Part shown: one piece after another, positions 5,143-53,279 of the stretch
Layout: every line of letters starts with the position of its first letter
How positions within the stretch are numbered: the first letter of the stretch is position 1
Assembly (NCBI GenBank): GCA_963787125.1
Contig: CAWBBV010000001.1
Location: 448,001-512,000, forward strand
DNA: 64,000 bases
Source: an uncultured delta proteobacterium
GTDB taxonomy: Bacteria; Desulfobacterota; Desulfuromonadia; Geobacterales; DSM-12255
Direction of reading: 5' to 3'
The notes under the pieces: model-generated
Told to the model about the DNA's origin: nothing
Databases searched by the model: none
What the model saw: the letters and a program-made list of their open reading frames with translations, nothing else
Position numbers and translations under genes: made by a program

Positions 5143-6483
5143 TTAGAACGTGTAGTTCATCATGAGGCCTGTGAGGTACGGATCCTTCACATCGCCCATG
5201 CCAGCCTTGGTGTAACCACCGAGCATAGCAACAGCGCCCTGTACAGTAGCCGTCAGGTTTGGATAGAGCATGTAGTTGAGGTTAACGTTAAACTCTGTAC
5301 CGATATCCTTGCTGGTTGTGGAGTTTTTTGGATTTGCAGCAGTTCCGGTTTGATCTCTCACGGCAACTGAAGCGTTTCCAAGGTTAACTGAAACATTAAA
5401 CTTGTCGTTGACCTTGATATCGGCGCCGAGGAACTTGCCCCACATACCGCGATTGCCGTTGTTGATGCTACCGACCAGGGCATTATCGGAGTCCATGTTG
5501 TATACGTTTCTCATCAGGAGCAGCATCTGGGAAGAGTAGAAGTTGTTGGCCTGACCAACGTAGCCATTAATGCTCTGGAATGCATCTGATTTTGTTGTGT
5601 CTTTGCCATCATCACCGCTTGCGTAAAGATTGGAAAATCTGACAGTAATATTGCCGAAAGTTGCTTTGGGAGCCATCATGAAGGCAAAGGCGCTCAGGTC
5701 CCTACCTGTTCCGTAGGTCTCGTCGCCGGTCTGGTACATTAAGAAGCTGTCCAGATTGACAATGCCTAACTTGGTAGTAACATTAACACCTAAACTATGT
5801 GTCTTCTGTCCCGAGAAAGTCTCATCGTTGTTGACGAGGTAGTAGGAGCCACCGATGGTGGTGTCCTTGTCAAGGGCGAATTTGGCGTCAAGTGCGTAGA
5901 CGTCGACATTCTGCTTGCCAAGAGGAGACGTAGTTCCGGTTCCGGCATAAGCGCCAGCATCCATGAGACGGAGGAACGCTGCGGTAGTTGTCACTGCGCC
6001 GAACTTGGCGGAAGCTACTGCGCCACCCATATCATCGTTTAGGAATACACCTTTGTAGGCGTCAGTGAAAGGCTGCAGACCGACTTTCATGTTGACCGGC
6101 GTTGACGGGAGATTGAAGTCAAGATAAACGCTCTTGGTTTCGATATTGACTGTGTCGCCACCAACACCTGCACCAGTACCTCTTGTGCCACCGGCTTTAT
6201 TGGCGCCAGTATCACCCCAAGATGAGTCAATTTCAAAGTGGGTTACCAGTTTGAGATCGTCGCTTGCCTTTGCAATGTACTGAATCCGGGCTCTCTGCTC
6301 GAAAACTGTGGTGTCGCGGGTGGAATCTGGAGCCAGAAGAGGCGCAATGCCTGCATTTTGGAAGTTGGTCATGTTGGCCCTGAGCCGGTACATGCCATGG
6401 AACTCGTTCTCAAATGCGAGTGCCGGTACTGCTGCTGCAATTGTCAGTGCTGCAGCACTAAGAACTACTAAACGTTTTTTCAT
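5143..6483 (-). CDS. ompJ: Outer-membrane porin, OmpJ-like
   Basis: Signal peptide, AFENEFHG mature start, beta-strand pattern, C-terminal YTF; position next to mce matches the Geobacter gene order as I recall it. Confidence 0.65.
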   Translation of the reverse strand: MKKRLVVLSAAALTIAAAVPALAFENEFHGMYRLRANMTNFQNAGIAPLLAPDSTRDTTVFEQRARIQYIAKASDDLKLVTHFEIDSSWGDTGANKAGGTRGTGAGVGGDTVNIETKSVYLDFNLPSTPVNMKVGLQPFTDAYKGVFLNDDMGGAVASAKFGAVTTTAAFLRLMDAGAYAGTGTTSPLGKQNVDVYALDAKFALDKDTTIGGSYYLVNNDETFSGQKTHSLGVNVTTKLGIVNLDSFLMYQTGDETYGTGRDLSAFAFMMAPKATFGNITVRFSNLYASGDDGKDTTKSDAFQSINGYVGQANNFYSSQMLLLMRNVYNMDSDNALVGSINNGNRGMWGKFLGADIKVNDKFNVSVNLGNASVAVRDQTGTAANPKNSTTSKDIGTEFNVNLNYMLYPNLTATVQGAVAMLGGYTKAGMGDVKDPYLTGLMMNYTF

Positions 6484-6894
6484 TGTTCTTCCTCCCTTTT
6501 ATGGTTGATGTTAAATAAACTGAATTTACGGTTTTGATTGCGACTTCTAACTACGCTCCCATCACCACCTTTCAGATAAATTTTAACTCCCGACTGATTT
6601 TAAAAACGCAAAAACCCGTACGCGTGCTCTAAATACGCAGCACACTCAGGATTTTAAGTATCTAACAGACTTTGTAAGTAGTATCCACCTATCCGCATTG
6701 ACACCCTTTAAGAAATTTGACTGTAAATTACAGAGTGGACTACCCATTGTCAAGTCTGTAATTCTGAAACTGAAAAAACCAGGTCGCGTAACCCCTTGAG
6801 CAGCACATCAGGAGAGAGGTTGTTCTATATTGTTTGATGCATATTACAAATTTTCAAACTTATGTCAACAAAATTTTCAAACAACGTTACAGAT

Positions 6895-7314: not shown

Positions 7315-7750
7315 GAAACACAGAGCAACGGAGCAACGGAAAAAATCAACAAATAATTCGCTTGATGCCTTCCCTCAAAAGCTTTGTGTAAAAGTTTATC
7401 AAAAGACCGACTCTTTTGTTTGACAGCTTTAAATAGGTGAAGAGCTGAGCTTCATGAATCGGCAGTATTTTTTCAACACATTTCAATTCGACAATAATTC
7501 TATTTTCCACCAAAAGATCAAGACGGAATCCTTCATCAAGAGTTGTTCCTTTGTACTTAACCGGCAAATGCTTTTGCCGCTCTACCCTTAAATCTGACTT
7601 TAATAATTCAAAAGCAAGGCAAGCTTCGTATACTGATTCCAGCAGTCCTGGACCAAGAGTATTATGGACCTGAATTGCACACCCGATTATCGTCTCAGTT
7701 AATTCCGCATCAGGATAGCTTTTCTCAGTTGCTCTGTTGCTCTGTGTTTC
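7315..7750. repeat. 31-bp imperfect inverted repeats enclosing the GxxExxY gene (7315-7345 and 7720-7750)
   Basis: GAAACACAGAGCAACGGAGCAACGGAAAAAA versus reverse complement GAAACACAGAGCAACAGAGCAACTGAGAAAA, 28/31 identical. Confidence 0.9.
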
Positions 7751-28690: not shown

Positions 28691-28778
28691 GGAGAGGTGT
28701 CCGAGTGGTCGATGGTGCCTGACTCGAAATCAGGTGTACGGCAACGTACCTAGGGTTCGAATCCCTACCTCTCCGCCA
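28691..28778 (+). tRNA. tRNA-Ser(CGA)
   Basis: GGAGAGG/CCTCTCC acceptor stem, CCTGA-CTCGAAA-TCAGG anticodon arm, long variable arm, GTTCGAATCC T-loop, CCA end. Confidence 0.97.
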
Positions 28779-28898: not shown

Positions 28899-30455
28899 AT
28901 GATCGAAGATATCAAAAAAACTCTCTGGGCCACCGCCGACAAGCTGCGGGCCAACATGGACGCTGCCGAATACAAGCATGTCGTGCTTGGTCTGATTTTC
29001 CTCAAATTCATCTCCGACACCTTCCAGACCCGCAGCAACGAGCTGACGGAGCGCTTTGCCGATCCTGAAGACGAGTATTACATTCAGGACGCAGACTCTG
29101 CTGGATTGGTTTCAGAGCTTGAAGACCGGGACTACTACCGGGAGGTCAACGTCTTTTGGGTGCCGGAAGCGGCGCGTTGGGAAAACCTGCGGGCACAGGC
29201 CAAGCAGCCGGACATTGGCAAGCGCATTGATGATGCCCTGACCCTGATCGAGACCGAAAACCCCAAGCTGAAAGGTATCCTCGACAAACGTTATGCACGC
29301 GTGCAGCTCCCGGATGGCAAGCTGGGGGAGTTAGTGGATATGGTCTCCACCATCGGCTTTGGCACCACCGGGCAGAGTGCCCGCGACCTGCTCGGCCAGG
29401 TGTATGAATATTTCCTCGGCCAGTTCGCCAGTGCAGAAGGCAAGCGGGGCGGACAGTTCTACACTCCCGCCAGTATTGTTAAGACGCTGGTGGCGATACT
29501 CGCTCCACATCAAGGCCAGGTCTATGACCCCTGCTGCGGCTCGGGCGGGATGTTTGTTCAATCTGAAAAGTTCATCGAAGCGCACGGCGGCAAGATCGGT
29601 GATGTTTCCATCTACGGTCAGGAATCCAACCCTACCACCTGGCGACTGGCGGCGATGAACCTGGCCATTCGGGGCATCGACTTCAACCTGGGCAAAGAAC
29701 CTGCCGACACCTTTGTCCGCAACCAACACCCTGACCTACGTGCTGACTTCGTGCTGGCAAACCCCCCTTTCAATATCTCCGACTGGTGGCACGCCAGCCT
29801 GGAAGGCGACCCGCGCTGGGTGTATGGTACGCCTCCGCAAGGCAACGCCAACTACGCCTGGCTGCAACATATCCTCTATCACTTAAAACCTGCGGGGAGA
29901 GGCGGTATCGTGCTGGCCAACGGCTCCATGTCCTCCAGCCAAAACTCTGAGGGTGACATCCGCCGGGCCATGGTCGAGGCTGACAAGGTGGAAGTCATGG
30001 TGGCCATGCCGGGCCAACTGTTCTTTAACACCCAGATCCCCGCCTGCCTCTGGTTTCTGGTCAAACAGAAGAGCAGGCGTCAGGGTGAGGTGCTGTTCAT
30101 CGACGCCCGCAAGCTTGGCACCATGATCAGCCGGGTGCAGATCGAGTTTACCGACGCCGATATTCAGCGCATTGCCGACACCGTGCATGCCTGGCGTGGT
30201 GATGGGGAAACAATAGCAGAGTATGCCGATGTGGCTGGTTTCTGCCGCAGTGTCACGCTTGCCGAGATCGCCGAACATGGTCATGTGCTGACGCCGGGGC
30301 GCTATGTCGGCGCGGAAGCGGTGGAGGATGACGATGAAGCATTTGCAGAGAAGATGCAGCGGCTGACGGGAGTGCTGGGTGAGCAGATGGCCAGGGGGGC
30401 GGAACTGGACAGGCTGATCCGGCAGAAGCTGGGAGGGTTGGGGTATGAGTTCTGA
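28899..30455 (+). CDS. hsdM: Type I R-M methyltransferase subunit
   Basis: [24 protein letters not shown] and ANPPFN motifs. Confidence 0.97.
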
Positions 30456-31867
30456 ACTGGAGGATAAATTGCGCGAAAGCGAAACCATCGAACTCAAGAA
30501 AAGCCTGGGAGAGTTGAAGCAAGGTTTGGTTTCGATGGTCGCCATTCTCAACAAGCATGGCGGTGGCGAGCTCTGGTTTGGGGTTGCCCATGACGGGCGT
30601 ATAGTTGGCCTGGAAGCAAACGAAAAGACCCTGCGTGATGTTTCACAAACCATCGGCGCACATGTCGAACCGCGTATTTACCCACGCGTTGAGATTGCAT
30701 CACGCAACCACAAAACCTGCCTGCGCATCACTTTTGCCGGACAGGATGCGCCCTATTTCGTCTATGGCCGCTCCTACATGCGGGTGGCGGATGAAGACCG
30801 CCAACTGAGTGCTCGTGAACTGGAAAATCTCATCCTCCACAAGAACAAGGAAGCGCTACGTTGGGATAATCAACACTGCGAACCGGGAACAATTTCACTC
30901 GAAACACTTGATATTGGAAAATTAAGACGTTTTGTCGAAAAGGCCGAATTGACGTGGGACAGTCCGGAAAACACTCTGGATAAACTGGCATTACGCAAGA
31001 AGGGCCAACTGCTCAATGCCGTCAAGCTGTTCTTTGCCAGCCAGCCCCCGTTGCAACTGCGTTGTGCCGTGTTCGCCACAACCGATAGCGCCACCATTAT
31101 CGACCGCCACGATTTCGACGGCGACATTCTGGAACTGGTGGAGGAAGCGCAAAAATACATCCTAAAGAACATTCACATCGGCATGAGGCTGGACGGACTC
31201 TATCGTGTAGATGTCCCGGAAATCTCCATGGATGCCCTGCGTGAGGCAATCATCAACGCTTTTTGTCACCGCGATTACCGCGACCCGGATTACATCCAGA
31301 TTGCCGTATTCAAAAACCGGGTTGAGATTCGCAGTCCCGGTGGGCTGTATGATGGTCTGACCATGGAAGAGATGCGCGGTGGTAACGTCTCTCGGCGCCG
31401 TAATCCGCTGATTGCTGACCTTTTCCGTCGTATCCACATGGTTGAAGGGTGGGGGCGCGGCATGCCGCTGATTCTGGAGAATGCACCCAACGTCCAGTTC
31501 CGTCAGATAGCCGGGCTGTTTATCGCCAGCTTTGAAAGGCCGTCTTTTCTTGAGGATACTAACCAAGAAACTACCCAAGAAGTTATCGACACTACAGGAA
31601 AGACTACAGGAAAGAAAAAAACTACAGGAAAGACTGCAGGAAAGAGTGCTGTTTTGCTGGAACGTGTGCGCCTACAGCCTCAGACCACCATATCCGAACT
31701 GGCAGAGCTGCTTGGTCTGACGGAAGATGGCGTGAACTACCACCTGCGCAGACTGCAAAAAGATGGGCTGTTACAGCGAGTGGGCGGCAGAAAGTCTGGG
31801 CATTGGGAGGTGCTGGTCCCGGTGGTTGATCCGGCAGAAGTTGGGAGGGCTGGGGTATGAGTTCTGA
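30415..31867 (+). repeat. 41-bp direct repeats (30415-30455 and 31827-31867) duplicating the hsdM/hsdS junction around the cargo gene
   Basis: TGATCCGGCAGAAG(C/T)TGGGAGGG(T/C)TGGGGTATGAGTTCTGA, 39/41 identical. Confidence 0.92.
30445..31860 (+). CDS. Schlafen/AlbA_2 domain + HATPase-like + C-terminal HTH protein ('RecG-like ATP-binding protein' family)
   Basis: [66 protein letters not shown]. Confidence 0.85.
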
Positions 31868-33340: not shown

Positions 33341-34654
33341 ATGCGCAGATTCATTGACAATCAACTCCAGCAATGGCAGGCCAGCACACGGCGCAAACCG
33401 CTGATTCTGCGGGGTGCCCGGCAGGTTGGCAAAACCTGGTCGCTGAAAGAGTTTGGTAAAAACCGCTTTGAATCGGTTGCGTTGGTTGATCTGGAACGCA
33501 ATCCCTCCCTGCGCAAGCTGTTCGATGGCGATCTTAACGCGGCGCGCATCTGCGCCGACCTTGAGGTGCTGCTGCGGCAGAAGATCACGCCGGGAAAAAC
33601 CCTGCTCTTTTTTGATGAGATCCAGGCGTGCCCCCGCGCCATAACCGCCCTGCGCTATTTTTATGAGGAGATGCCGGAACTGCATGTCGTGGCAGCCGGA
33701 TCTCTTCTGGAATTTGCGCTTAAAGACGCCTCCTTTCCTGTTGGCAGGGTTCAGTTTCTCAATCTCTATCCACTCTGTTTCGCCGAATATCTCGAAGCGA
33801 TCGGCAACGCCCCAGCTGCTGCGGCTGTTTTAGGTAACCCCGCTGACATATCACCCGTTGTGCATGAGCTTCTCCGTGAAGAACTGAAACGTTATTTTTT
33901 CATCGGTGGAATGCCGGCGGCTGTCAATGCATTCAAAGAAAACGGTTCGCTGCGGGATGCCTTCGAGGTGCAGGGGGAAATTGCGGAATCATATCGAATG
34001 GATTTTGCTAAATACACCCCTCAGGTTGACCGTTATTGTCTCGATTCAGTCTTTACCTCACTGGCGCAAAGTGTCGGGCAACAGATCAAATACGCACGAC
34101 TGGGCGAGGGGTACGGCAACCCGACACTGAAGAAAGCTTTTGAAGCGCTCTGTCTGGCGCAGGTTGCCCGCAGGATAACCTCGGTTAATCCCACTGGCCT
34201 GCCTTTGGGAGCAAGTGCATCAGTCAAGGCATTCAAGGCGCTGATGCTGGATCTGGGCCTGATGCGTTACCTATCCGGTATGCCGGACGATATTGAATAT
34301 GCCAGAGCGGATTTGCTTGCCATTTATCGCGGTGCCATGGCTGAACAGTTTGTTGGACAGGAGATGCTGGTATCACAGCAGGGAAGCCTCTATTACTGGG
34401 ATAGGCAGGCAAAAAGCAGTTCCGCCGAGGTTGATTATCTGGCTGTCATGAACGGGATTATTCATCCGATCGAAGTTAAAAGCGGCGCCAGCGGCAGTTT
34501 AAAAAGTCTGCATCTTTTTCTGGCTTCATTCCCGGAGTGCGGTAAGGCGTTGGTCTTTTCCGACCAGCCCTATTCTGATCTTCCGGAGCAGAAAATCACC
34601 TTTTTGCCACTGTATAGTGCTTTTGCAGCAACAAAGCCGTCGGAGAACATATGA
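33341..34654 (+). CDS. AAA+ ATPase with DUF4143/PD-(D/E)XK-like C-terminus
   Basis: [29 protein letters not shown]....PIEVKSG. Confidence 0.88.
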
Positions 34655-38587: not shown

Positions 38588-38647
38588 CCAACATCCAAAT
38601 AAAACCGCATAGGCTTACCTCAGATGAAATCACACGGAGGTAATCCT

Positions 38648-38899
38648 ATGAATGGCATGAAAGTATCGATCCAGTATTCACTCCCAGAAACCGGCTATCT
38701 GCGGTTAACGCAGATTATTGGCAATCCCAAAGCTAATCCACCCATCCCACCGATAATACCTATAAGTAAGAGTACCTGGTGGTCCGGCGTCAAGTCAGGT
38801 CTTTACCCATCACCGGTCAAACTTGGCCCGAGAATCACAGCTTGGCGTGTCGAAGATATACTGAATTTCATTACCCGCGATACAAATGCCGTTGAATAA
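38648..38899 (+). CDS. AlpA-family regulator/excisionase
   Basis: LPETGYLRL.QIIG, SKSTWW.GVKSG.YP.PVKLGPRITAWRVEDI. Confidence 0.9.
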   Translation: MNGMKVSIQYSLPETGYLRLTQIIGNPKANPPIPPIIPISKSTWWSGVKSGLYPSPVKLGPRITAWRVEDILNFITRDTNAVE

Positions 38900-40316
38900 A
38901 GCGCCACGGTCGGGGGGAAACAGTATGAATTCATCAAAATTACTTCCTGCATTCAATCGTCCTCAATGTGAAGACTCACAGGCAGCTGAAATGTCAGTTC
39001 TGGGGGCCATTCTGTTGGATCAGAGCTGTACACCCAAGGTGTCAGCTTTGCTTTCTGCAAACGACTTCTATCAGCAATGCAATAGGCTGATCTATACATT
39101 GCTATTGGGTTTGTATATTGAGCAGACCCCGGCTGACTTGATAACTGTCTGCCATCGGCTCAAGGCTGAAGGCAATTTGGATCGAGTCGGTGGCGCTGCG
39201 TATATTGCCGAGTTAGTCGACTTTACACCAACATCAGCGAATGTAACTTTCTACGCCGGGATAGTTTTCAGAAAGGCGCGTGAGCGAAAGATCACTGGCT
39301 TAGCCAACGAACTAGGTAGGAGCCCTGAAAATTTAACGGAAATATTTCAGCGCCTATCAGAGCTTCAGCATGAAGATCAATATTTAGTTCCTACTAAACG
39401 ACTTAAAGTCCTGAGTCTTCAGGAACTTTTGCAAACGAGATTTCCTCAACGCGAGGAACTGCTTGCCCCAATTATCCTTACCCAAAGCCTCAGTATGATC
39501 CATGCCTGGCGGGGCCTGGGTAAAACCCACATTGGGCTTGGTATTGCCTATGCCGTAGCGAGTGGCGGTACATTCCTTAAGTGGCGCTCGCCACGGCCGC
39601 GGGGTGTTCTCTACATTGATGGTGAGATGCCAGGAAGTGCATTGCAAGAGCGCTTGGCTGCAATCAATTCCGCAAGTGATCAGGAACCTTTACCTGAAAA
39701 CTTCCAAATCATCACCCCGGACTTGCAGGCTGTGGGCGGAATGCCGGATTTGTCGACATTTGAAGGCCAGGCTGCGGTTAATTCCATGATTACAACTGAG
39801 ACTGCACTGATAGTGGTCGATAACATCAGTTGCCTTTGCCGCTCAGGCAGGGAAAACGAGGCTGAAAGTTGGCTCCCAGTGCAAGGCTGGGCGTTGCGAC
39901 AGAGGGCAGCAGGTCGGGCTGTCCTATTTATTCACCACTCAGGGAAAAGTGGAGAGCAAAGAGGGGCCAGCAAAAGAGAGGATATCCTTGACTTGGTCAT
40001 AAAGTTGAAACGTCCGGTCGACTACGATCCCAGGCAAGGAGCTGTTTTTGAGCTGATTTATGAGAAAGCGAGATATCTCAAGGGAGAAGACACCTCCAGC
40101 TTCGAGTCTCGGTTGACAACCAATCCTGTCAGCGGGCTGCAGGAATGGATCTACAGGGATGTTGCTCTGACGACATTCGACCGGGTGGTTAATCTGGCCA
40201 AAGAAGGTCTAACCCAACATGAGATTACTACCGAATTGCAGATCAACAAATCCAATGTGAGTCGTCATTGGAAAAACGCTGTCGAACAGGGACTGATACA
40301 GTCAGGTAAAAAGTGA
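38886..40316 (+). CDS. DnaB N-terminal domain fused to a RepA/AAA_25-type helicase with C-terminal HTH
   Basis: AEMSVLGAILL..DLITV..VGGAAYIAEL; Walker A AWRGLGKT; VLYIDGEM; VVDNIS; IHHSGK..QRGAS. Confidence 0.8.
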   Translation: MPLNKAPRSGGNSMNSSKLLPAFNRPQCEDSQAAEMSVLGAILLDQSCTPKVSALLSANDFYQQCNRLIYTLLLGLYIEQTPADLITVCHRLKAEGNLDRVGGAAYIAELVDFTPTSANVTFYAGIVFRKARERKITGLANELGRSPENLTEIFQRLSELQHEDQYLVPTKRLKVLSLQELLQTRFPQREELLAPIILTQSLSMIHAWRGLGKTHIGLGIAYAVASGGTFLKWRSPRPRGVLYIDGEMPGSALQERLAAINSASDQEPLPENFQIITPDLQAVGGMPDLSTFEGQAAVNSMITTETALIVVDNISCLCRSGRENEAESWLPVQGWALRQRAAGRAVLFIHHSGKSGEQRGASKREDILDLVIKLKRPVDYDPRQGAVFELIYEKARYLKGEDTSSFESRLTTNPVSGLQEWIYRDVALTTFDRVVNLAKEGLTQHEITTELQINKSNVSRHWKNAVEQGLIQSGKK

Positions 40317-40560
40317 GAGTTGCGCAGTTGCGTTCTCTGTGGCAGTGCAACTGCGCAACTCAATTTGAGGTGGGTCAAAATCGGCGTGCGGGTTTTGGCC
40401 CGCACGCCACACCGCGCTTGCGCGACGCAGAAACTGAGGGGATCTAAATGTCGTCATTTACATTCATGGCAACTGTTTGGCACATGCAAGTTTTATTGAC
40501 ACTAGCACCCTCCCCTCAGTTCCCGCGCTGTGTCAGTTTACCCAGACACAGCGCGGGAAC
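40317..40560. other. Structured non-coding region with four inverted repeats (candidate oriV/oriT or ncRNA)
   Basis: 15-bp IR 40317-31/40347-61; 10-bp IR 40383-92/40399-408; 11-bp IR 40432-42/40511-21; 16-bp IR 40519-34/40545-60. Confidence 0.7.
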
Positions 40561-40614
40561 AACCCTAGAGTGGCTTTATCATATTTAACGCAACAAATAA
40601 CGGAGGACAGATAA

Positions 40615-40893
40615 ATGAGTAAGATCGACGAGACATTTAATGCGAAGGCAGAGGTTGACCAAATCCGAGCAAGGCGAGCCGAAGCGAGACGTAAAATTCA
40701 CCGTAAGAGTCGCCTCGATAAGTACCGGGCAGAGCTGGTCGCTATGAAATTGGCAGGAGCTTCATGTGCCGACTTAGCCGAGTGGCTCAGGGTAAATCAC
40801 CGCTGCAAAGTAAGCCGTAGTTCGGTGGACCGATTTTTAAAAAAGTTACCCGAGATGAATAAGATTCCGTCAGATGCGAAAGAGGAGACGTAA
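40615..40893 (+). CDS. Small basic HTH-like protein paired with the recombinase
   Basis: GGAGG RBS; SRLDKYRAELVAMK.AGAS.ADLAEWLR....VSRSSVDRFL. Confidence 0.75.
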   Translation: MSKIDETFNAKAEVDQIRARRAEARRKIHRKSRLDKYRAELVAMKLAGASCADLAEWLRVNHRCKVSRSSVDRFLKKLPEMNKIPSDAKEET

Positions 40894-40894
40894 G

Positions 40895-41785
40895 ATGCCC
40901 AGTTTCCGCTCACCAAAAGCACAGGCCGAGCATGCCGTCACCTTAAAAGTGGCCTTGGGCAAGGGACGCCATGACCATAGGGACGACGGCAAAATTCATA
41001 GTGTCGGCTCTGCGAGGGGCTATCAGCAAGCCCTTAAGGGGGTGACCAAGTATGTGCAGGAACAGCGCCTTGGTGATCTTCGTAACATGACTACCGAGAT
41101 CGCACAACAGTATCTGGCTGTTCGAGCTACGCTAGTTACACAGAAAACCCTCGATTTAGATCGACAGGCGCTCCAGATGCACATGGGAATACGTCTTGAT
41201 GTTGTTAAAAGCGAGAAGGAGACCCATTTGTCCACTCGGAGCTATTCGACGGCGCAGATCGAGCGGATAGCTTCCGCCCAGTCGGAGCGAAACAGCTTGG
41301 CTACACAGATCGCCCACTGTGCCGGTTTAAGGGCACATGAGCTGTTGACCATCCGACCGATGGAGGAACGCGAAGCATCTAAACATCGAGAGTGGAGCGC
41401 TGACCGTTTTTTAGGCCGGGAAGGTGCGCGCTATACGGTGGAAGGAAAAGGTGGTTTGGTTCGAGAGGTAATGCTTTCGAATGAGTTGGCGAAACAATTG
41501 GAGGCAACGCGTCTTGTCGAACCTCGACAGGTAGTTGATCGGGGTGTGAATTATAGTCAGTATTACGACATTGGTGGCGGCCGGGCATGGAGTCAGAGTT
41601 TTTCTGCAGCCAGCCAGCGTGAGCTCGGTTTTTCGACTGGAGCGCACGGACTTCGTCATTCTTACGCCCAAGAGAGAATGGATGAATTGCAGGCCAGAGG
41701 CATGTCGTACGAAAACGCCAAAGGGACAGTCGCCCAGGAAGTCGGGCATTTTGATAAAGAGACTACGGAGGCTTATTTACGATGA
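40895..41785 (+). CDS. Tyrosine recombinase superfamily protein (possible relaxase-like)
   Basis: GLRAHE (R), GKGG (K), HGLRH (HxxR), GHF (H) and terminal YLR (Y). Confidence 0.85.
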   Translation: MPSFRSPKAQAEHAVTLKVALGKGRHDHRDDGKIHSVGSARGYQQALKGVTKYVQEQRLGDLRNMTTEIAQQYLAVRATLVTQKTLDLDRQALQMHMGIRLDVVKSEKETHLSTRSYSTAQIERIASAQSERNSLATQIAHCAGLRAHELLTIRPMEEREASKHREWSADRFLGREGARYTVEGKGGLVREVMLSNELAKQLEATRLVEPRQVVDRGVNYSQYYDIGGGRAWSQSFSAASQRELGFSTGAHGLRHSYAQERMDELQARGMSYENAKGTVAQEVGHFDKETTEAYLR

Positions 41786-42507
41786 AAACACGATATTGGT
41801 GGATAGTTGGAGGAGTATGTCTCGGCGCCTCACTTATTTATCTACATTCAAAGCAAGAGACAATGGTGGTTACATGGTTAAATGCTGGCGTTGACAATGC
41901 TTCTGAAAATTCAAAGTGGGTTTTAGTTAATTATAGCAATGGTAAGGTTGTACATGCCATTGAATGCTTGGAATTTGCAGAGGGGTGGGAAGCTTTACGG
42001 GCCATCTGGCCACTGTCGCTTGGCTTAATTGTATTATCGGTTTCTATTGGGATAATTATAGGGAGATTTATTCGAGATACGCACGCTGCTGCTGAACATC
42101 AATATGCGCTTTCTGAGATGGAAGGAAAATATCGAGAAAGAATAAACCTTGCGATAAAAATCCACGAGCGAGCGGTAAGCATGGAGGTCAACGCAAAAGT
42201 TCGTGTCAAGGAGGTCAATGATAAAGAAACAGCGCTTATAATGAAAGAGCACGCAGTGGAGTGCAAGGAGCGAAATATTGAAAATACAATTGACGAAAAG
42301 GTGTTAACGACTCAAAAACTGCTAAAAAACCTTCAAGAAGACCACAAAAATCGTTATTGCAAGATGGAAAACCTTGAACAGGATAAACTTGTTTTGAGAA
42401 AGAAAAATATCTTACTGGAGAAGGAACTCATTAAGCTACATGAGGAAAATGTCTCTTTAACAAGAGAACTTTTGACCATCAAGATGGCTTCCAGCAATAA
42501 ATCGTAG
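41782..42507 (+). CDS. Hypothetical membrane protein with coiled-coil C-terminus
   Basis: Two hydrophobic segments and an E/K-rich heptad tail; ATGA overlap with the recombinase gene. Confidence 0.6.
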   Translation: MKTRYWWIVGGVCLGASLIYLHSKQETMVVTWLNAGVDNASENSKWVLVNYSNGKVVHAIECLEFAEGWEALRAIWPLSLGLIVLSVSIGIIIGRFIRDTHAAAEHQYALSEMEGKYRERINLAIKIHERAVSMEVNAKVRVKEVNDKETALIMKEHAVECKERNIENTIDEKVLTTQKLLKNLQEDHKNRYCKMENLEQDKLVLRKKNILLEKELIKLHEENVSLTRELLTIKMASSNKS

Positions 42508-44702: not shown

Positions 44703-44799
44703 GACTACCTCCCTGTAAAAACAGAGGGTTACAGTTTTTTGACTGTAACCCTTTTTGTATATGCTTGAAAAGTGTGAACGTAGGTGTGAACGTTTAAAG
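44703..44799 (+). repeat. att-like junction repeat, copy 1
   Basis: GACTACCTCC..GTAAAAACA..GGGTTACAG..CTGTAACCCTTTTT..AAGTGTGAACGTAGGTGTGAACGTTTAAAG. Confidence 0.8.
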
Positions 44800-45877: not shown

Positions 45878-48800
45878 CTATTTAACAGCAAACAATGCGC
45901 TGTCCTTCCCAAAATTAATAATCAAAGGTGTCTGTGGATGGCCTAGTTGCGTAGAAATTTCAGTTGTCTTGTTCTTGGAATACATTCCGAGACCTATTAC
46001 CGTCACGTTTCCATTACTGTCTTTGCCGACTTCTTCTGTATTCTTAATGCCGCTCAGAAGGGTGTGGGTATACAGCCCATTCCCTCGGTAACCATCCATG
46101 GCAGTTTGAACACTACCTGCAGAGGCATAGATGTGAAGACCCATTTTCTTTGCCATAACTGACATTCTGGCATCATAGAGCGAGCTGATAATGTTGTCGA
46201 CACCACCTGCGTGACAGGTGTCAAAGATGAAGAGCTGGGACAATGATTTTACCTTTTTCGATATCTCAACTATTTCGTTAGAGCTGATCAGTTTATTTGT
46301 GTCATTCAGGTTGCCATTGTAGTCAGAAGTTACGATGTAATACTGATCCTGTACCAGTGCACCATGCGAAGCTACAAAGAGGATAAAGCTGTCTCCATGC
46401 TTGATTTTACGGGAAAGGGTTTCAATCTTCGATAATATATTCGCTTTGCTGGCCTGGTTATCCAGTAAACGCTCTACATGGATATTGTCTGGTTTGTAGA
46501 GGCTAAGTGCTTTTTCTGGCAACTTGGTAATAAAGTCGTTAGCATCCTTGGCCGCATATTTGAGGTTAACACTTCCGTCTTTATATTTGTCTATGCCAAT
46601 TGCGAGAATAAAGAGCCTAGGTTCAACAGGCTTGCGGGAAGATTCAAAGACAGCTGTTTGCATATAACTCTGGATCGAGTTGTTGGCATTAAATGCGGCA
46701 ACGCTGATCTCGTTCTCACCGGATACCGCTTCCAGTTCAACGCACTCTTTGATTGAATCACCTTTAGACTTTGCGACAATGAAATCAGGCTTTTCTTTTG
46801 CCAGAATCGAAAGTCCCCGCATATCCTTCTGGATTGCACGACTGTTCATGCTGTCAAGTTGTCGTTTCTCAGATGTACTCTTGGCAATGGCATCGCGGTA
46901 AAAGCCATCAGATTTGACCAGTTTTCCATTCTGGAACAGACGGACCTCACCGATTCCGCCACCGGTACTCTTTATGCTGTAACAAAGCTGGACAAACTCT
47001 TTATCGGATTTATTAGGGATTGCTGAAAGCATGACAGTTGGGGGAGGATTACGTATGGCATCTTCAATTGTTATGCTGATCATGTTATTTATGTCTTCGC
47101 CTTTGAGTTTTACTTGTACGATATCAGGGCGGTAGAAAACATCATAGAACTGGTCAATGCCGTAGACCGTATTACTGTTTCTGAGACGAATATTGAGCTG
47201 TTTATGACCATTCAACGATGAGTTGTAGTACCCCTCAGGTGTCATGACAATCCATTCGTTATCACTGAAGGAGCTGAACTGGGCTATTTCTTTACCGGAA
47301 GCAGTCTCCCATTGCCGGATTGCATTTTTTCCTGCGAGAACATACTTTCCCTCTGGACTGAATGCGGCAAAATTAACATTACCTGATCCTTTAAAAGTAC
47401 GTATTGCTCTACCAGTTCCCGTGTCATAGAGTTTCAGGCTATCCTCGCTAAATGATAATGCCCCGCCTTTTGTCCCAGCTAGTGCATATTTCCCATCCGG
47501 GCTGAAGGCAATAGATTCAACAAAGTCAATACCCCCCATTGACTTTATTTTTTGCCCGCTGGCAATATCCCAAAGTTTGATGGTTTGACGCGTTATAGAA
47601 CTCCCTGAAAGAGCATACTTCCCATCCGGGCTAATTGCTATAGCCTGGACACTGCCTGCATTTTCGATAGTTTTAATCTTAGTTCCATTACTGACATTCC
47701 AAAAACTGAGCTTGCCATCATAACTTCCCGCGAGCAGAAAGCGACCGTCTGGACTGAAGGCAATCGAGGAAATCATGTACTGATCACTTTTAATGGTCCA
47801 TATCTCTTTCGCGCTATTAATGTCTCTGAGAGTAAGGATCGACCCACTTCCTGCAGAAAGCACATATTTCCCGTCAGGGCTAATAACAACAGATTTAACT
47901 GCAGACTGCCCCGTGAAAGTTCGGATTTCCTTGCCGCTGCTTAACTCCCAAAGTTTAAGAGTTTTATCCTCACTTCCTGAAAGAGCATAATTTCCATCTG
48001 GGCTTAGGGCTACAGAATTAACTTTTTGGGAATGCCCCTTAAAAGCCTGTATCTTCCTGCCGCTGCCGATATCCCATAAATTGAGGTCGTTATCGTCACT
48101 TCCAGAAAGTATATATTTCCCGTCAAAGCTGACGGCGGCAGAATTTATATCTGCTGAATGGCCGCTGAATGTGCGGACTTCATTTCCGCTGTTAATTTCC
48201 CAGAGTTTACTGGTTTTATCAATACTACCTGAAAGCAGATAGTTCCCATCCTGACTAAAAACGGCCGAAAGCACCCGGGCTGAAAGTCCCTTATAATTTC
48301 GTATCTCCATACCACTATTAAGATCCCAGATTTTTAGAGCATTATCCCACCCTCCGGAAAGAACTTGCTTGCCATCTGGACTAAAGGCTACAGTCGCAAC
48401 TCTATTTGTGTGCCCCTTAAGAGTTCGTATCTCCTTACCGCTGCGAATGTCCCAGAGTTTCACGGTGCTATCCCACGCCCCGGAGAGAGCATATTTCCCA
48501 TCCGGACTGAAGGCGACTGATAAAACACCATCACAGAAAGGGGCTGCTCCCGAGTGCCCCTTAAATGTACGTATTTCCTTGCCGTCACTAATGTCCCAGA
48601 GCTTTAAGGTGTTATCTGCACCTCCAGAAAGTGCGTGCTTTCCGTCTGGGCTAAAGGCTATAGAATTAATCTTATCTTCATCGCCGAAACTGCCTATGAT
48701 CTCATCGAAGTATTTTTTTAAACCTTCAGTCAACTTTTTATCGCCATCTGGGTCACTGTCTTGGCCATTGGCTTGTTTATCAGTCTTATTAGGTTGTCCC

Positions 48801-49306
48801 CAAGTTCTAACTTTAGTCCCGGCACTGATATCCCATAGAGAAATGCCTCTCCCCGCAGAGAGGGCATACTTCCCATCCGGACTGAACGCTACCGAGTTAA
48901 TATCGCCCGAATCCCCCATTGAACGGATTTCAGCGCCGCTACCGAGATCCCAAACCTTAAGACTATCTTTTCTATTTTCATTCCCGCGATTATTACTGCC
49001 GGAGAGGACATACATTCCATTTGGGCTGATAGCAACGGTATTTACCGGTTGTGTGTGCCCCTTAAAAGTTCTAATCTCTTTACCTGTGCTAATGTCCCAG
49101 AGCTTAATGGTGTTATCCCAACTTCCTGTGAGCAAATGTTTCCCATCTGGGGTTACGGTTATTGCGCTAACTGCCTTTGAATGCCCAAGTTGTGCAAAAA
49201 TCTCCATTTCCACTTTACTGTTTTCCGTGGCTGCTGCCACACTGTCTGCCATGACTGTATTACAGAGGGACATAAAAACTATTGCCAAGAACAGTTTCTG
49301 AATCAT
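45878..49306 (-). CDS. Secreted WD40-repeat protein with C-terminal caspase (peptidase C14) domain
   Basis: Signal peptide, 14 WD40 repeats, LAIGIDKY, LKYAAKDA, catalytic ASHG and DTCHAG. Confidence 0.9.
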   Translation of the reverse strand: MIQKLFLAIVFMSLCNTVMADSVAAATENSKVEMEIFAQLGHSKAVSAITVTPDGKHLLTGSWDNTIKLWDISTGKEIRTFKGHTQPVNTVAISPNGMYVLSGSNNRGNENRKDSLKVWDLGSGAEIRSMGDSGDINSVAFSPDGKYALSAGRGISLWDISAGTKVRTWGQPNKTDKQANGQDSDPDGDKKLTEGLKKYFDEIIGSFGDEDKINSIAFSPDGKHALSGGADNTLKLWDISDGKEIRTFKGHSGAAPFCDGVLSVAFSPDGKYALSGAWDSTVKLWDIRSGKEIRTLKGHTNRVATVAFSPDGKQVLSGGWDNALKIWDLNSGMEIRNYKGLSARVLSAVFSQDGNYLLSGSIDKTSKLWEINSGNEVRTFSGHSADINSAAVSFDGKYILSGSDDNDLNLWDIGSGRKIQAFKGHSQKVNSVALSPDGNYALSGSEDKTLKLWELSSGKEIRTFTGQSAVKSVVISPDGKYVLSAGSGSILTLRDINSAKEIWTIKSDQYMISSIAFSPDGRFLLAGSYDGKLSFWNVSNGTKIKTIENAGSVQAIAISPDGKYALSGSSITRQTIKLWDIASGQKIKSMGGIDFVESIAFSPDGKYALAGTKGGALSFSEDSLKLYDTGTGRAIRTFKGSGNVNFAAFSPEGKYVLAGKNAIRQWETASGKEIAQFSSFSDNEWIVMTPEGYYNSSLNGHKQLNIRLRNSNTVYGIDQFYDVFYRPDIVQVKLKGEDINNMISITIEDAIRNPPPTVMLSAIPNKSDKEFVQLCYSIKSTGGGIGEVRLFQNGKLVKSDGFYRDAIAKSTSEKRQLDSMNSRAIQKDMRGLSILAKEKPDFIVAKSKGDSIKECVELEAVSGENEISVAAFNANNSIQSYMQTAVFESSRKPVEPRLFILAIGIDKYKDGSVNLKYAAKDANDFITKLPEKALSLYKPDNIHVERLLDNQASKANILSKIETLSRKIKHGDSFILFVASHGALVQDQYYIVTSDYNGNLNDTNKLISSNEIVEISKKVKSLSQLFIFDTCHAGGVDNIISSLYDARMSVMAKKMGLHIYASAGSVQTAMDGYRGNGLYTHTLLSGIKNTEEVGKDSNGNVTVIGLGMYSKNKTTEISTQLGHPQTPLIINFGKDSALFAVK

Positions 49307-53184: not shown

Positions 53185-53279
53185 GACTACCTCCAGTAAA
53201 AACAAGGGGTTACAGCTTGATGCTGGAACCCTTTTTTTTATAGCCTGACAAGTGTGAACGTATGCGTGAACGTTTAAAG
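53185..53279 (+). repeat. att-like junction repeat, copy 2 (probable right end of the island)
   Basis: GACTACCTCCAGTAAAAACAAGGGGTTACAG..CTGGAACCCTTTT..AAGTGTGAACGTATGCGTGAACGTTTAAAG. Confidence 0.8.

Follow-up and report, generated by a model that had tools for sequence, protein, structure and literature searches.

The present study concerns a compact gene cassette and the hairpin in front of it, which lie at positions 40317 to 42507 of a 64,000-nucleotide (nt) stretch of genomic DNA from an uncultured delta proteobacterium (contig CAWBBV010000001.1); this whole stretch is called the window below. On the forward strand the cassette encodes a 92-amino-acid (92-aa) basic protein with a helix-turn-helix (HTH) domain (40615..40893), a divergent tyrosine recombinase of 296 aa (40895..41785) and a 241-aa membrane protein (41782..42507). 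These genes are preceded by a leader rich in inverted repeats, the last of which, here called the main hairpin (40519..40560), is the conserved cis site examined below as a candidate site for the initiation of DNA transfer. The open reading frame (ORF) of the recombinase was listed as 303 aa starting at 40874; an ATG at 40895, one base past the upstream stop codon and behind AGAGGAG, gives the 296-aa protein, and most of the best 120 of 2795 homologues are exactly 296 aa in length. An earlier reading of this DNA from its letters (hereafter the sequence-only reading) had described a coupled operon of three genes, and this is confirmed by the one-base gap between the first two genes and by the ATG of the third, which overlaps the recombinase stop as ATGA.

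The recombinase is composed of a core-binding and a catalytic domain. Its catalytic set is R146, K185, H251, R254, H285 and Y294, the tyrosine being the third residue from the C-terminus, and in an alignment of 48 diverse members of the family (A2) R146, K185, R254 and H285 are invariant while H251 and Y294 occur in 90% or more of the members, which confirms the full R-K-HxxR-H-Y set and the near-terminal tyrosine noted earlier. The AlphaFold2 (AF2) model built on A2 shows the two-domain fold with a mean confidence (pLDDT) of 95, and a Foldseek search matched it over about 300 columns to the integron integrase IntI4 (2.1e-9), then to XerA, XerH, Tn1549 Int, Cre and lambda Int; the profile match to IntI4 reached 9.6e-7. 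Because the catalytic set is conserved and the model matches two-domain recombinases, the protein is considered a complete simple tyrosine recombinase. An arm-binding domain was not found in it, the model opening with the core-binding domain, so that the earlier statement on this point is upheld by both the model and the domain search. No Pfam or NCBIfam model passes its cut-off for the 296-aa protein, for which the sub-threshold matches are SAM_1, XerA and integron integrase, with a PHROG integrase at 5.4e-6; PF00589 gives no match at E <= 0.1 for the window protein and is detected at E <= 0.01 in 17 of the 48 members (best 3.3e-5). A search of PADLOC with the three cassette proteins returned 0 families at E <= 0.01, for which reason a defence system was rejected as the function of the cassette.

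The protein encoded upstream of the recombinase consists of a long basic helix at the N-terminus and a three-helix HTH after it (alignment A3). Its matches to HTH_23, HTH_32 and HTH_28 are all sub-threshold, and its AF2 model (pLDDT 78) places helices at residues 10-25, 33-46, 51-62 and 68-82; against the PDB the best profile match has an E value of 0.14 and no fold match is found at E <= 0.001, the rows being generic HTH ones. All 27 loci examined have the HTH gene ahead of the recombinase gene, and the annotation of four more plasmid loci, outside this set, also shows a small ORF upstream; that the two genes form an obligate pair is thereby supported. The complex prediction for the two proteins, both entered as alignments, gave a best score of 0.30, below the mark of 0.32, and is not used as evidence. 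In the third protein a single strong hydrophobic segment (about residues 74-98) is preceded by a W..(I/L)WP motif; the protein also has a weaker N-terminal segment below the threshold used, and a long charged helical tail of 141 residues, 37% of them charged, with no proline and one glycine. Its earlier description as a membrane coiled-coil protein thus stands for the membrane part, on the strength of the hydrophobic segment, and the tail may form a coiled coil. A third gene of the same architecture and position is found in Geobacter-type islands and in plasmids of Vibrio, Shewanella, Xenorhabdus and Aeromonas; it is more divergent in sequence than the rest of the cassette, with the W..(I/L)WP motif kept, and it is missing from the 4.7-kb Klebsiella plasmid L035.

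Regarding the leader, a repeat search of the window recovered all four inverted repeats (15, 10, 11 and 16 nt) that the sequence-only reading had named. There are perfect repeats with 15-nt arms at 40317-40331 / 40347-40361 and with 10-nt arms at 40383-40392 / 40399-40408, then an imperfect repeat of 17 nt (88%) at 40426-40442 / 40511-40527, which includes the perfect 11-mer 40432-40442 / 40511-40521, and finally a perfect one with 16-nt arms at 40519-40534 / 40545-40560. The 11-mer and 16-nt repeats overlap by 3 nt as claimed, and the stem containing the 11-mer and the 16-nt stem are both formed, side by side, in the minimum-energy fold. For the leader of 298 nt (40317-40614) the folding energy amounts to -123.4 kcal/mol as RNA (z -7.05) and to -77.2 kcal/mol as DNA (z -8.45), and in either case 0 of 200 dinucleotide-preserving shuffles equals the observed value. 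Among the sequencing runs listed for this DNA no RNA run appears, the listed ones being metagenomic DNA runs with a small share of it.

These repeats have different histories, and the idea of a single 245-nt element is given up: the 15-nt repeat goes with the helicase gene upstream, and the 16-nt hairpin alone is found family-wide. Hairpin 1 (40317..40361; perfect 15-nt arms, 15-nt loop) begins one base past the helicase stop codon and is kept in all four relatives that have the same helicase upstream (alignment A5), perfect with one compensatory change in G206 and with a 2x2 internal mismatch in the other three; it is missing from cassette relatives with different upstream genes (alignments A1 and A4), and it belongs to the helicase module and not to the recombinase cassette. 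Hairpin 2 (40383..40408; perfect 10-nt arms, 6-nt loop) is poorly conserved, a counterpart being read from A5 in one of the four helicase-sharing relatives (G030). It is followed by the mini-hairpin CCGCGCTTGCGCG (40412..40424), which holds a direct-orientation copy of CCGCGCT, the left-arm motif of the main hairpin, about 110 nt upstream of it; the block TYCGCGCTG-N-CGCGCGRA is conserved in most of the 22 sequences of A4 and also in A1. The long-range inverted repeat AACTGAGGGGA ... TCCCCTCAGTT (40432..40521) has about 68 nt of variable sequence inside, both of its blocks are conserved in the Geobacter-type group, and its covariation as read from A4 (n=22) is partial, with T:A in about 12 sequences, A:T with an adjacent mismatch in about 7, and few unpaired. 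Conservation of the upstream structure, on which the sequence-only reading depended, is therefore found for the 16-nt hairpin with its covarying outer stem, while the 10-nt repeat is kept in 1 of 4 relatives and the 15-nt repeat is tied to the helicase.

It is conceivable that the leader is mainly regulatory, that is, a structured 5' leader or small RNA and/or an operator of the HTH protein, with the hairpin not being the substrate of the enzyme. The stability of the RNA fold just given would fit such a role, as would the short distance of about 55-95 nt from the hairpin to the start codon in the Geobacter-type group, and there is a precedent in SGI1, which, according to the accessible part of its description, needs a small RNA (sgm-sRNA) encoded between oriT and mpsA. 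Yet neither a sigma-70-like promoter nor a terminator-like site is found on the sense strand in 40200-40700, and Rfam offers no family: there is no gathering-score match in the window or in seven related loci, and the leader gives at most generic hairpin (miRNA-model) noise at E > 0.2. Moreover, the hairpin lies 350-750 nt upstream of the start codon in most other lineages, unlike a fixed leader element, and the box within it is conserved across proteins just 45% identical, which points to recognition by a protein. We consider this explanation quite improbable.

The main hairpin has the arms GTTCCCGCGCTGTGTC / GACACAGCGCGGGAAC, within which lie the boxes CGCTGTGT (40526-40533) and ACACAGCG (40546-40553); in the window the boxes are separated by 12 nt starting with CAG, and the gap between the perfect arms is 10 nt. 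The conserved form is an 8-bp box, CGCTRKGT with its complement ACMYAGCG, within a longer stem, and 26 of 33 loci have it upstream of the HTH gene. Over the sequence that was scanned, two additional pattern matches have no relation to the cassette, and a third, in L012, looks like a second copy of the site already counted there. For the six stem positions outside the box, Watson-Crick pairs are formed in 19, 19, 19, 19, 19 and 17 sites out of a diverse set of 20, each position showing several types of pair, and 0 of 2000 partner shuffles reach the observed sum. Sites of the Geobacter-type group have 12 nt between the boxes and those of other lineages 14-22 nt, the spacer often being itself palindromic, and the gap between the perfect arms ranges from 3 to 17 nt across the other sites; a mismatch adjoining the box is conserved. 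The site is thus selected for intrastrand complementarity with variable geometry. On its 3' side, 30-60 nt from the hairpin, the element T(T/G)ACGCA(A) is present in up to three direct copies, two or three in other lineages and a single one in the window (TTAACGCAAC, 40585..40594, forward strand); its ACGC..CA columns are invariant in A1, A4 and A5.

For a genome-wide view, a strict site was defined as a 22-base pattern and scanned in 239 genomes of the window's order, with the reversed pattern as control. It is found in 23 of the 37 genomes that have the recombinase and in none of the 202 that do not, and the reversed control gives 0 matches. The strict sites lie within about 0.4 kb of a recombinase gene on the same contig, and in all of them the loop is asymmetric, with CAG always first on the gene strand. 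Three genomes (G030, G123 and G206) have two sites and two recombinase genes each, so there is overall about one site per gene copy, and the host genome of the window (4.2 Mb) has one of each; among the 23 site-bearing genomes no site stands away from the gene except one at a contig end. The hairpin site, the HTH gene and the recombinase gene are therefore one unit. An invertible promoter switch was rejected in view of the one box site per genome and of the long-range arms, which are 68 nt apart, and a telomere resolvase because the centre of the site is not palindromic and the protein is far smaller.

Several further hairpins were met in the course of these scans. In the large plasmids of Vibrionaceae (L077 7870-8450, L078 7787-8336) there are six to eight direct TGCCTCA repeats between ssb and the cassette, and in the same region a CCCCTCA...TGAGGGG hairpin replaces the CGCTRKGT box; the words GAGGGG/CCCCTC of this region also build the long-range repeat of the window. 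A clade of Pseudomonadales with high GC (guanine plus cytosine) content has a conserved hairpin, CGCTGGGA-N22-TCCCAGCG (L024, L025, L027, L030 and L032, at about 7511-7568; L029, 10929-10966), which lies about 0.6 kb downstream of the recombinase gene in five of six loci and about 4 kb downstream in L029, and the third gene in this clade encodes a 165-aa soluble protein. The hairpin and its flanks are nearly identical in L012, which was binned as Saccharibacteria, and in L038, a Vibrio cholerae plasmid; since the site occurs at both ends of the 5.4-kb contig of L012, this contig is probably circular and a mis-binned Vibrio-type plasmid. In viral contigs a 16-base box pattern matches 35 loci, with a family gene within 1.6 kb at L052 alone; by rough estimate this is about the number expected by chance and has no bearing on the association of site and gene. 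Many of these viral matches (L043, L053, L055, L059, L064, L075 and others) belong to a palindrome of 33 nt that stands at about 1.2 kb from the end of a contig, and they appear to mark a family of related phages unrelated to the cassette.

The family is large and its distribution patchy. Database matches to the recombinase at E <= 0.001 amount to 2795 proteins, and an exhaustive search gives 694 clusters at 50% identity. Within the window's order the 37 genomes with the gene fall in 16 of 38 genera, and the gene occurs in none of the seven other genomes of the same genus, a patchy occurrence which is typical of a mobile element. A tblastn search found it on 162 plasmid records (72 from Klebsiella, 34 from Vibrio, 21 from Aeromonas), mostly of 4.5-20 kb, and 147 of these are typed as non-mobilizable, whereas among the 5000 best ColE1-like matches to one Klebsiella cassette plasmid 3511 have a known relaxase; known MOB (mobilisation) genes are therefore rarely found together with the cassette (15 of 162 plasmids). 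The annotated cassette replicons of 4.7-10 kb otherwise hold just replication, partition and toxin-antitoxin genes, and for one of them, pA46H2, the accessible part of the paper lists no MOB module. The Klebsiella plasmid was also used as a query for cassette-free siblings; the similarity was confined to the ColE1 replication region and no cassette boundaries could be drawn. In all three large Vibrionaceae plasmids examined, a gene about 40% identical is divergent from a ssb-hyp-hyp-topB cluster, and two of the three are typed as MPF_G conjugative plasmids. In otherwise similar islands the cassette follows three different replication genes, and it also occurs on plasmids with unrelated backbones; the hairpin and the three genes appear to travel as a block among island backbones and plasmids. 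A phage packaging site was rejected since the cassette is found on 4.6-kb plasmids, and a main replication origin since the plasmids have their own Rep or ColE1 origins. One of the plasmids, L038 (6.6 kb, Vibrio cholerae, typed non-mobilizable), has a predicted qnrVC gene across its origin (2-286, 6247-6615).

A recombinase with a single site just upstream of its own operon might simply serve self-contained site-specific recombination, by which multimers or cointegrates of a plasmid or of an excised, replicating island are resolved, with the HTH protein as architectural or directionality factor and autoregulator. TnpI-IRS of Tn4430, ResD-rfsF of F, Rsd-crs of pSDL2 and Cre-loxP are tyrosine-recombinase resolution systems in which a simple recombinase without arm-binding domain acts on a site just upstream of its own gene, built of an inverted repeat and directly repeated motifs. 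The full recombinase fold and catalytic set, the position of the site, and the extra direct arm motif and ACGCA repeats, which could be accessory sites, are what such a system would have; one site per replicon would suffice for it, it would be useful on the many small multicopy plasmids that carry the cassette, where multimer resolution matters, and it would need none of the conjugation genes (VirB4, VirD4, TraG-D_C) of which the host genome has no match. In G093 (L087, G093:C4:8376-8659), when compared with A4, the stretch between the upstream CCGCGCTG and its copy in the main hairpin is missing while the rest of the cassette is intact, which looks like a precise deletion exactly between two direct copies of CCGCGCTG, as resolution would produce.

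The geometry of the site does not agree with this explanation. Core sites of the resolution type consist of two inverted arms around a fixed crossover region of 6-8 bp, and the box spacing of 12-22 nt and the perfect-arm gap of 3-17 nt misfit cleavage points so placed; unlike the known resolution sites, the one studied here has arms at varying distances and a stem that covaries and is in part continuous. In Cre, XerD and lambda Int a C-terminal segment past the tyrosine makes cyclic contacts between subunits, and in the cassette recombinase no such tail is present. Its obligate HTH and membrane partners are a further difference, resolution leaving no place for a conserved membrane protein. Furthermore, a resolution system should be indifferent to known MOB genes, which are on just 15 of the 162 cassette plasmids, and it would not account for a cassette adjoining ssb-topB in MPF_G plasmids. 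We regard resolution as rather unlikely and yet as a serious rival. Since the variable distance of the arms misfits a fixed crossover of 6-8 bp, it points to recognition of a hairpin or cruciform, and the asymmetric loop likewise points to a strand-specific event.

Recombination on folded single-stranded DNA, as with integron attC or with XerCD on CTX phage DNA, would also involve a hairpin; here the hairpin would be the substrate and the cassette, site and genes together, a small mobile unit able to enter plasmids and islands. The best matches of the enzyme being to IntI4, the covarying stem with its varying inner part and conserved mismatch beside the box, and the occurrence of the cassette behind three replication genes and on unrelated plasmid backbones are all in its favour. 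Indeed the site resembles attC in being an imperfect hairpin whose length varies and whose stem holds conserved boxes. It differs from IntI/attC in that there is no cassette array and no attI, only one site per gene, with none elsewhere in the 23 genomes save the one at a contig end, and the match to IntI4 is barely above those to Xer proteins. No second site, empty target or junction was identified, and ordinary recombination can also shuffle modules. We consider this explanation as a whole highly doubtful.

Taken together, the presence on small plasmids without MOB genes, the presence in islands that bear an integrase, the neighbourhood of ssb-topB in MPF_G plasmids and the C-terminus right after the tyrosine favour the initiation of transfer. 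We hence read the cassette as a putative, undescribed relative of the tyrosine-recombinase-like relaxases TcpM, MpsA and MobK together with its origin of transfer (oriT), with a probability of roughly 0.5. We infer its mode of action, in every step, as follows. The HTH protein would bind the repeated motifs beside the hairpin, the ACGCA and/or TGAGGGG elements, and so mark the site; the recombinase would read the 8-bp box within the stem once the hairpin is extruded or single-stranded; and Tyr294 would cut one specific strand at the CAG end of the asymmetric loop or close to it. The cut would launch single-strand transfer through the conjugation pore of a helper element, and the module as a whole would be the oriT and relaxase of an integrative mobilisable element or a mobilisable plasmid. 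The membrane protein may tether or dock the complex at the envelope. A narrower claim on the enzyme, which we think unlikely, is that it is hairpin-specific, reading the box in a folded single strand or cruciform and cutting the asymmetric loop, guided by the HTH protein and anchored to the membrane; this would be a third use of folded DNA beside integron attC and CTX-type Xer, by which 3'-phosphotyrosyl chemistry would launch transfer or else the cassette would be moved.

By analogy with known systems, the cassette is proposed to work most like TcpM-TcpK-oriT, MpsA-MpsB-oriT and MobK-oriT, with its own protein family, accessory proteins and site. TcpM of pCW3 from Clostridium perfringens is also a Xer-like enzyme with its tyrosine near the C-terminus; the full-length hhalign alignment puts box I, the KGx lysine, HxLR and the terminal (H)xR...T..YL in register, and the NCBIfam models that match best, XerA and integron integrase, are the same for both proteins. 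Against the family profile A2, TcpM scores E 3.1e-4 with a probability of 39% and 21% identity over the full length, compared with 8.1e-7 and 0.021 for ordinary integrases. In both systems, as far as the accessible description of pCW3 goes, a small DNA-binding protein is encoded beside a site rich in inverted and direct repeats upstream of the enzyme gene. The differences are that TcpK has a winged helix (A3 against TcpK, E 0.11), that the order is tcpK-oriT-tcpM in pCW3 and site-HTH-recombinase in the cassette, that TcpM lies within a full conjugation locus, and that TcpM passes PF00589 (33.8 bits) whereas the window protein does not.

MpsA of SGI1, in the accessible part of its description, is an island-borne recombinase-like protein with a GC-rich site bearing inverted repeats just upstream and a partner of about 100 aa from the same mRNA. 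Likeness to and difference from MpsA were judged through PF12835 and this description. Two PF12835-type proteins of the window's order align with A2 over their full length (8.8e-8 and 1.7e-4) and end a few residues past the tyrosine, and in the Atlas the nearest named clusters of a stored homologue include PF12835 Integrase_1. In the hhalign comparison of C-termini, the residues past the tyrosine number about 5-7 in TcpM, about 4-6 in two PF12835-type proteins and 15-17 more in two ordinary integrases, and the window protein has 2. Different from the cassette is MpsB, a fragment like the SAM-like core-binding domain encoded downstream, whereas the cassette enzyme includes the core-binding domain and has its HTH partner upstream and a membrane-protein gene downstream. 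MobK of the Klebsiella plasmid pIGRK, by the portion of its description available, is encoded by an "integrase" gene behind a repeat-rich region on a small plasmid predicted to be non-mobilisable, and turned out to be a relaxase whose site-specific nicking depends on the tyrosine and on Mg. The same description sets it apart, with about 28 kDa, Tyr179 followed by two helices and no partner protein; the Klebsiella cassette plasmids, unlike it, encode a 295-aa protein with a C-terminal tyrosine plus the HTH gene. The use of PF12835 as a signature of MpsA-like relaxases is stated in the accessible part of PMC10484663 (2023). A recent preprint (bioRxiv 10.64898/2026.01.13.699239), in the part accessible to us, reports that recombinase-like MOB_M relaxases are abundant in islands, beside integrases and with MPF_G, and defines MOB_M membership by a score of at least 84 against the CONJscan hidden Markov model; the present family may already be inside that profile.

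A number of results weigh against a relaxase. The enzyme keeps a core-binding domain, a catalytic domain and the full catalytic set, and its best fold matches are real recombinases; the hhalign values (TcpM 3.1e-4; PF12835-type 8.8e-8 and 1.7e-4; ordinary integrases 8.1e-7 and 0.021) do not single out relaxases. PF12835 gives no match for the window protein and weak ones in 5 of the 48 members (E <= 0.01, best 1.9e-5), and none of the PF12835 places compared in the 239 genomes (about 45 listed) coincides with a place of the recombinase. The accessory protein, as predicted, is unlike MpsB and TcpK, having an HTH and being encoded upstream. As to the site, covarying inverted arms would also be expected of a recombinase core site that co-evolves with its protein, the G093 deletion and the upstream direct copy of the arm motif resemble recombination sites, the box is missing from 7 of 33 loci (L016 and the high-GC Pseudomonadales group), and the Vibrionaceae plasmid clade uses other motifs than the box. 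The TraG-D_C coupling-protein domain occurs in 22 of the 37 recombinase-positive and in 67 of the 202 negative genomes (odds ratio 2.96), a weak enrichment in favour of the relaxase reading that is confounded by the relatedness of the genomes and their load of mobile elements; within the order, none of the compared cassettes lies in the neighbourhood of a coupling-protein match, and the host genome has no match to VirB4, VirD4 or TraG-D_C. A literature search found no activity report for any member of the family. The proposal of the sequence-only reading, a unit of oriT, accessory factor and tyrosine relaxase, accordingly holds in part: the pairing with the HTH gene, the hairpin in cis and the role other than integrase speak for it, and the missing PF12835 match, a similarity to TcpM not above that to integrases and the lack of an ATPase or coupling protein of a type IV secretion system in the host speak against it.

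New in this cassette are a recombinase family without a curated model, whose members are annotated merely as "site-specific integrase", the fixed upstream HTH and membrane coiled-coil partners, and a sharply defined hairpin with a box. Recombinase-like relaxases comprise three tested proteins, and the polarity of their cleavage is opposite to that which rolling-circle transfer needs. With a 14-bp stem, a conserved box and one site per gene copy, the family is a compact and well-defined substrate for experiments on such enzymes. If the cassette does mobilise DNA, transfer would be open to about 150 small plasmids of Klebsiella, Vibrio and Aeromonas that are typed "non-mobilizable", among them at least one with a predicted quinolone-resistance gene; the Geobacter-type islands of defence genes would gain a route of transfer, and mobility-typing tools would need a new profile. 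Should it be a resolution system instead, the geometry of its site would be unorthodox.

The surroundings of the cassette bear on its role in the island. A tRNA-Ser gene lies at 28691-28778, about 12 kb from the recombinase gene, and is followed by a type I restriction-modification operon with two inserted genes, a 226-aa ORF, an AlpA-like gene, the helicase gene and the cassette, downstream of which are DUF551, SRAP and WD40-caspase genes. The AlpA-like small regulator (38624..38899, forward strand) has a weak match to Pfam Phage_AlpA (E 0.007), and clear AlpA genes stand at the equivalent position in the relatives L004, L009 and L010. The helicase-type replication protein of 476 aa (38886..40316, forward strand) has a DnaB N-terminal domain (1.3e-27), an AAA_25 (RepA-like) ATPase domain (4.3e-23) and a C-terminal winged HTH, and four relatives in the order have it at 75-77% identity directly upstream of the cassette. 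The order of genes in L004 and L010 is integrase, alpA, replisome organiser or primase, HTH gene, recombinase, membrane protein and defence cargo (Shedu, Fic and HsdM; AbiE and PglZ in L009), from which it follows that the cassette is a backbone module of integrative islands with their own integrase. Since L004 and L010 carry a separate integrase of the P4 type with an arm-binding domain (Arm-DNA-bind_3, Phage_int_M, Phage_integrase), the 296-aa recombinase is not the integrase of the island; a P4- or lambda-type role is also rejected because it has no arm-binding domain and the tRNA-Ser is 12 kb off. In the window there is no PF00589 integrase, the nearest match being about 48 kb past the window end, and no repeat of the tRNA-Ser 3' end was found, so that the earlier placement of the cassette "mid-island, away from att sites" could not be confirmed. 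The island in the host genome seems to have lost its integrase, and the host copy, with neither integrase nor resident helper, may be stranded.

Other insertions are seen on both sides of the cassette. Between hsdM and hsdS of the restriction operon stands a 471-aa gene (30445-31860; Schlafen/AlbA_2, HATPase_c_4 and winged HTH), bracketed by a 44-nt direct repeat (93%; 30412-30455 / 31824-31867) that duplicates the end of hsdM, and it appears to have been inserted into the operon; hsdS and hsdR likewise have an extra gene between them (33341-34654), which encodes an AAA_14/DUF4143 ATPase. Downstream, a 57-nt direct repeat (82%; 44743-44799 / 53223-53279) encloses about 8.5 kb with SRAP, WD40-caspase, hydrolase, nitroreductase and GNAT genes and may mark the ends of another inserted segment. 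Within it, the reverse strand at 45878-49306 encodes a protein of 1142 aa in which numerous WD40 repeats are combined with a caspase-like region at the C-terminus (matches to PADLOC caspase at 1.1e-10 and to HEAT-ARM_XIII at 3.2e-27); this protein may have a role in defence or cell death.

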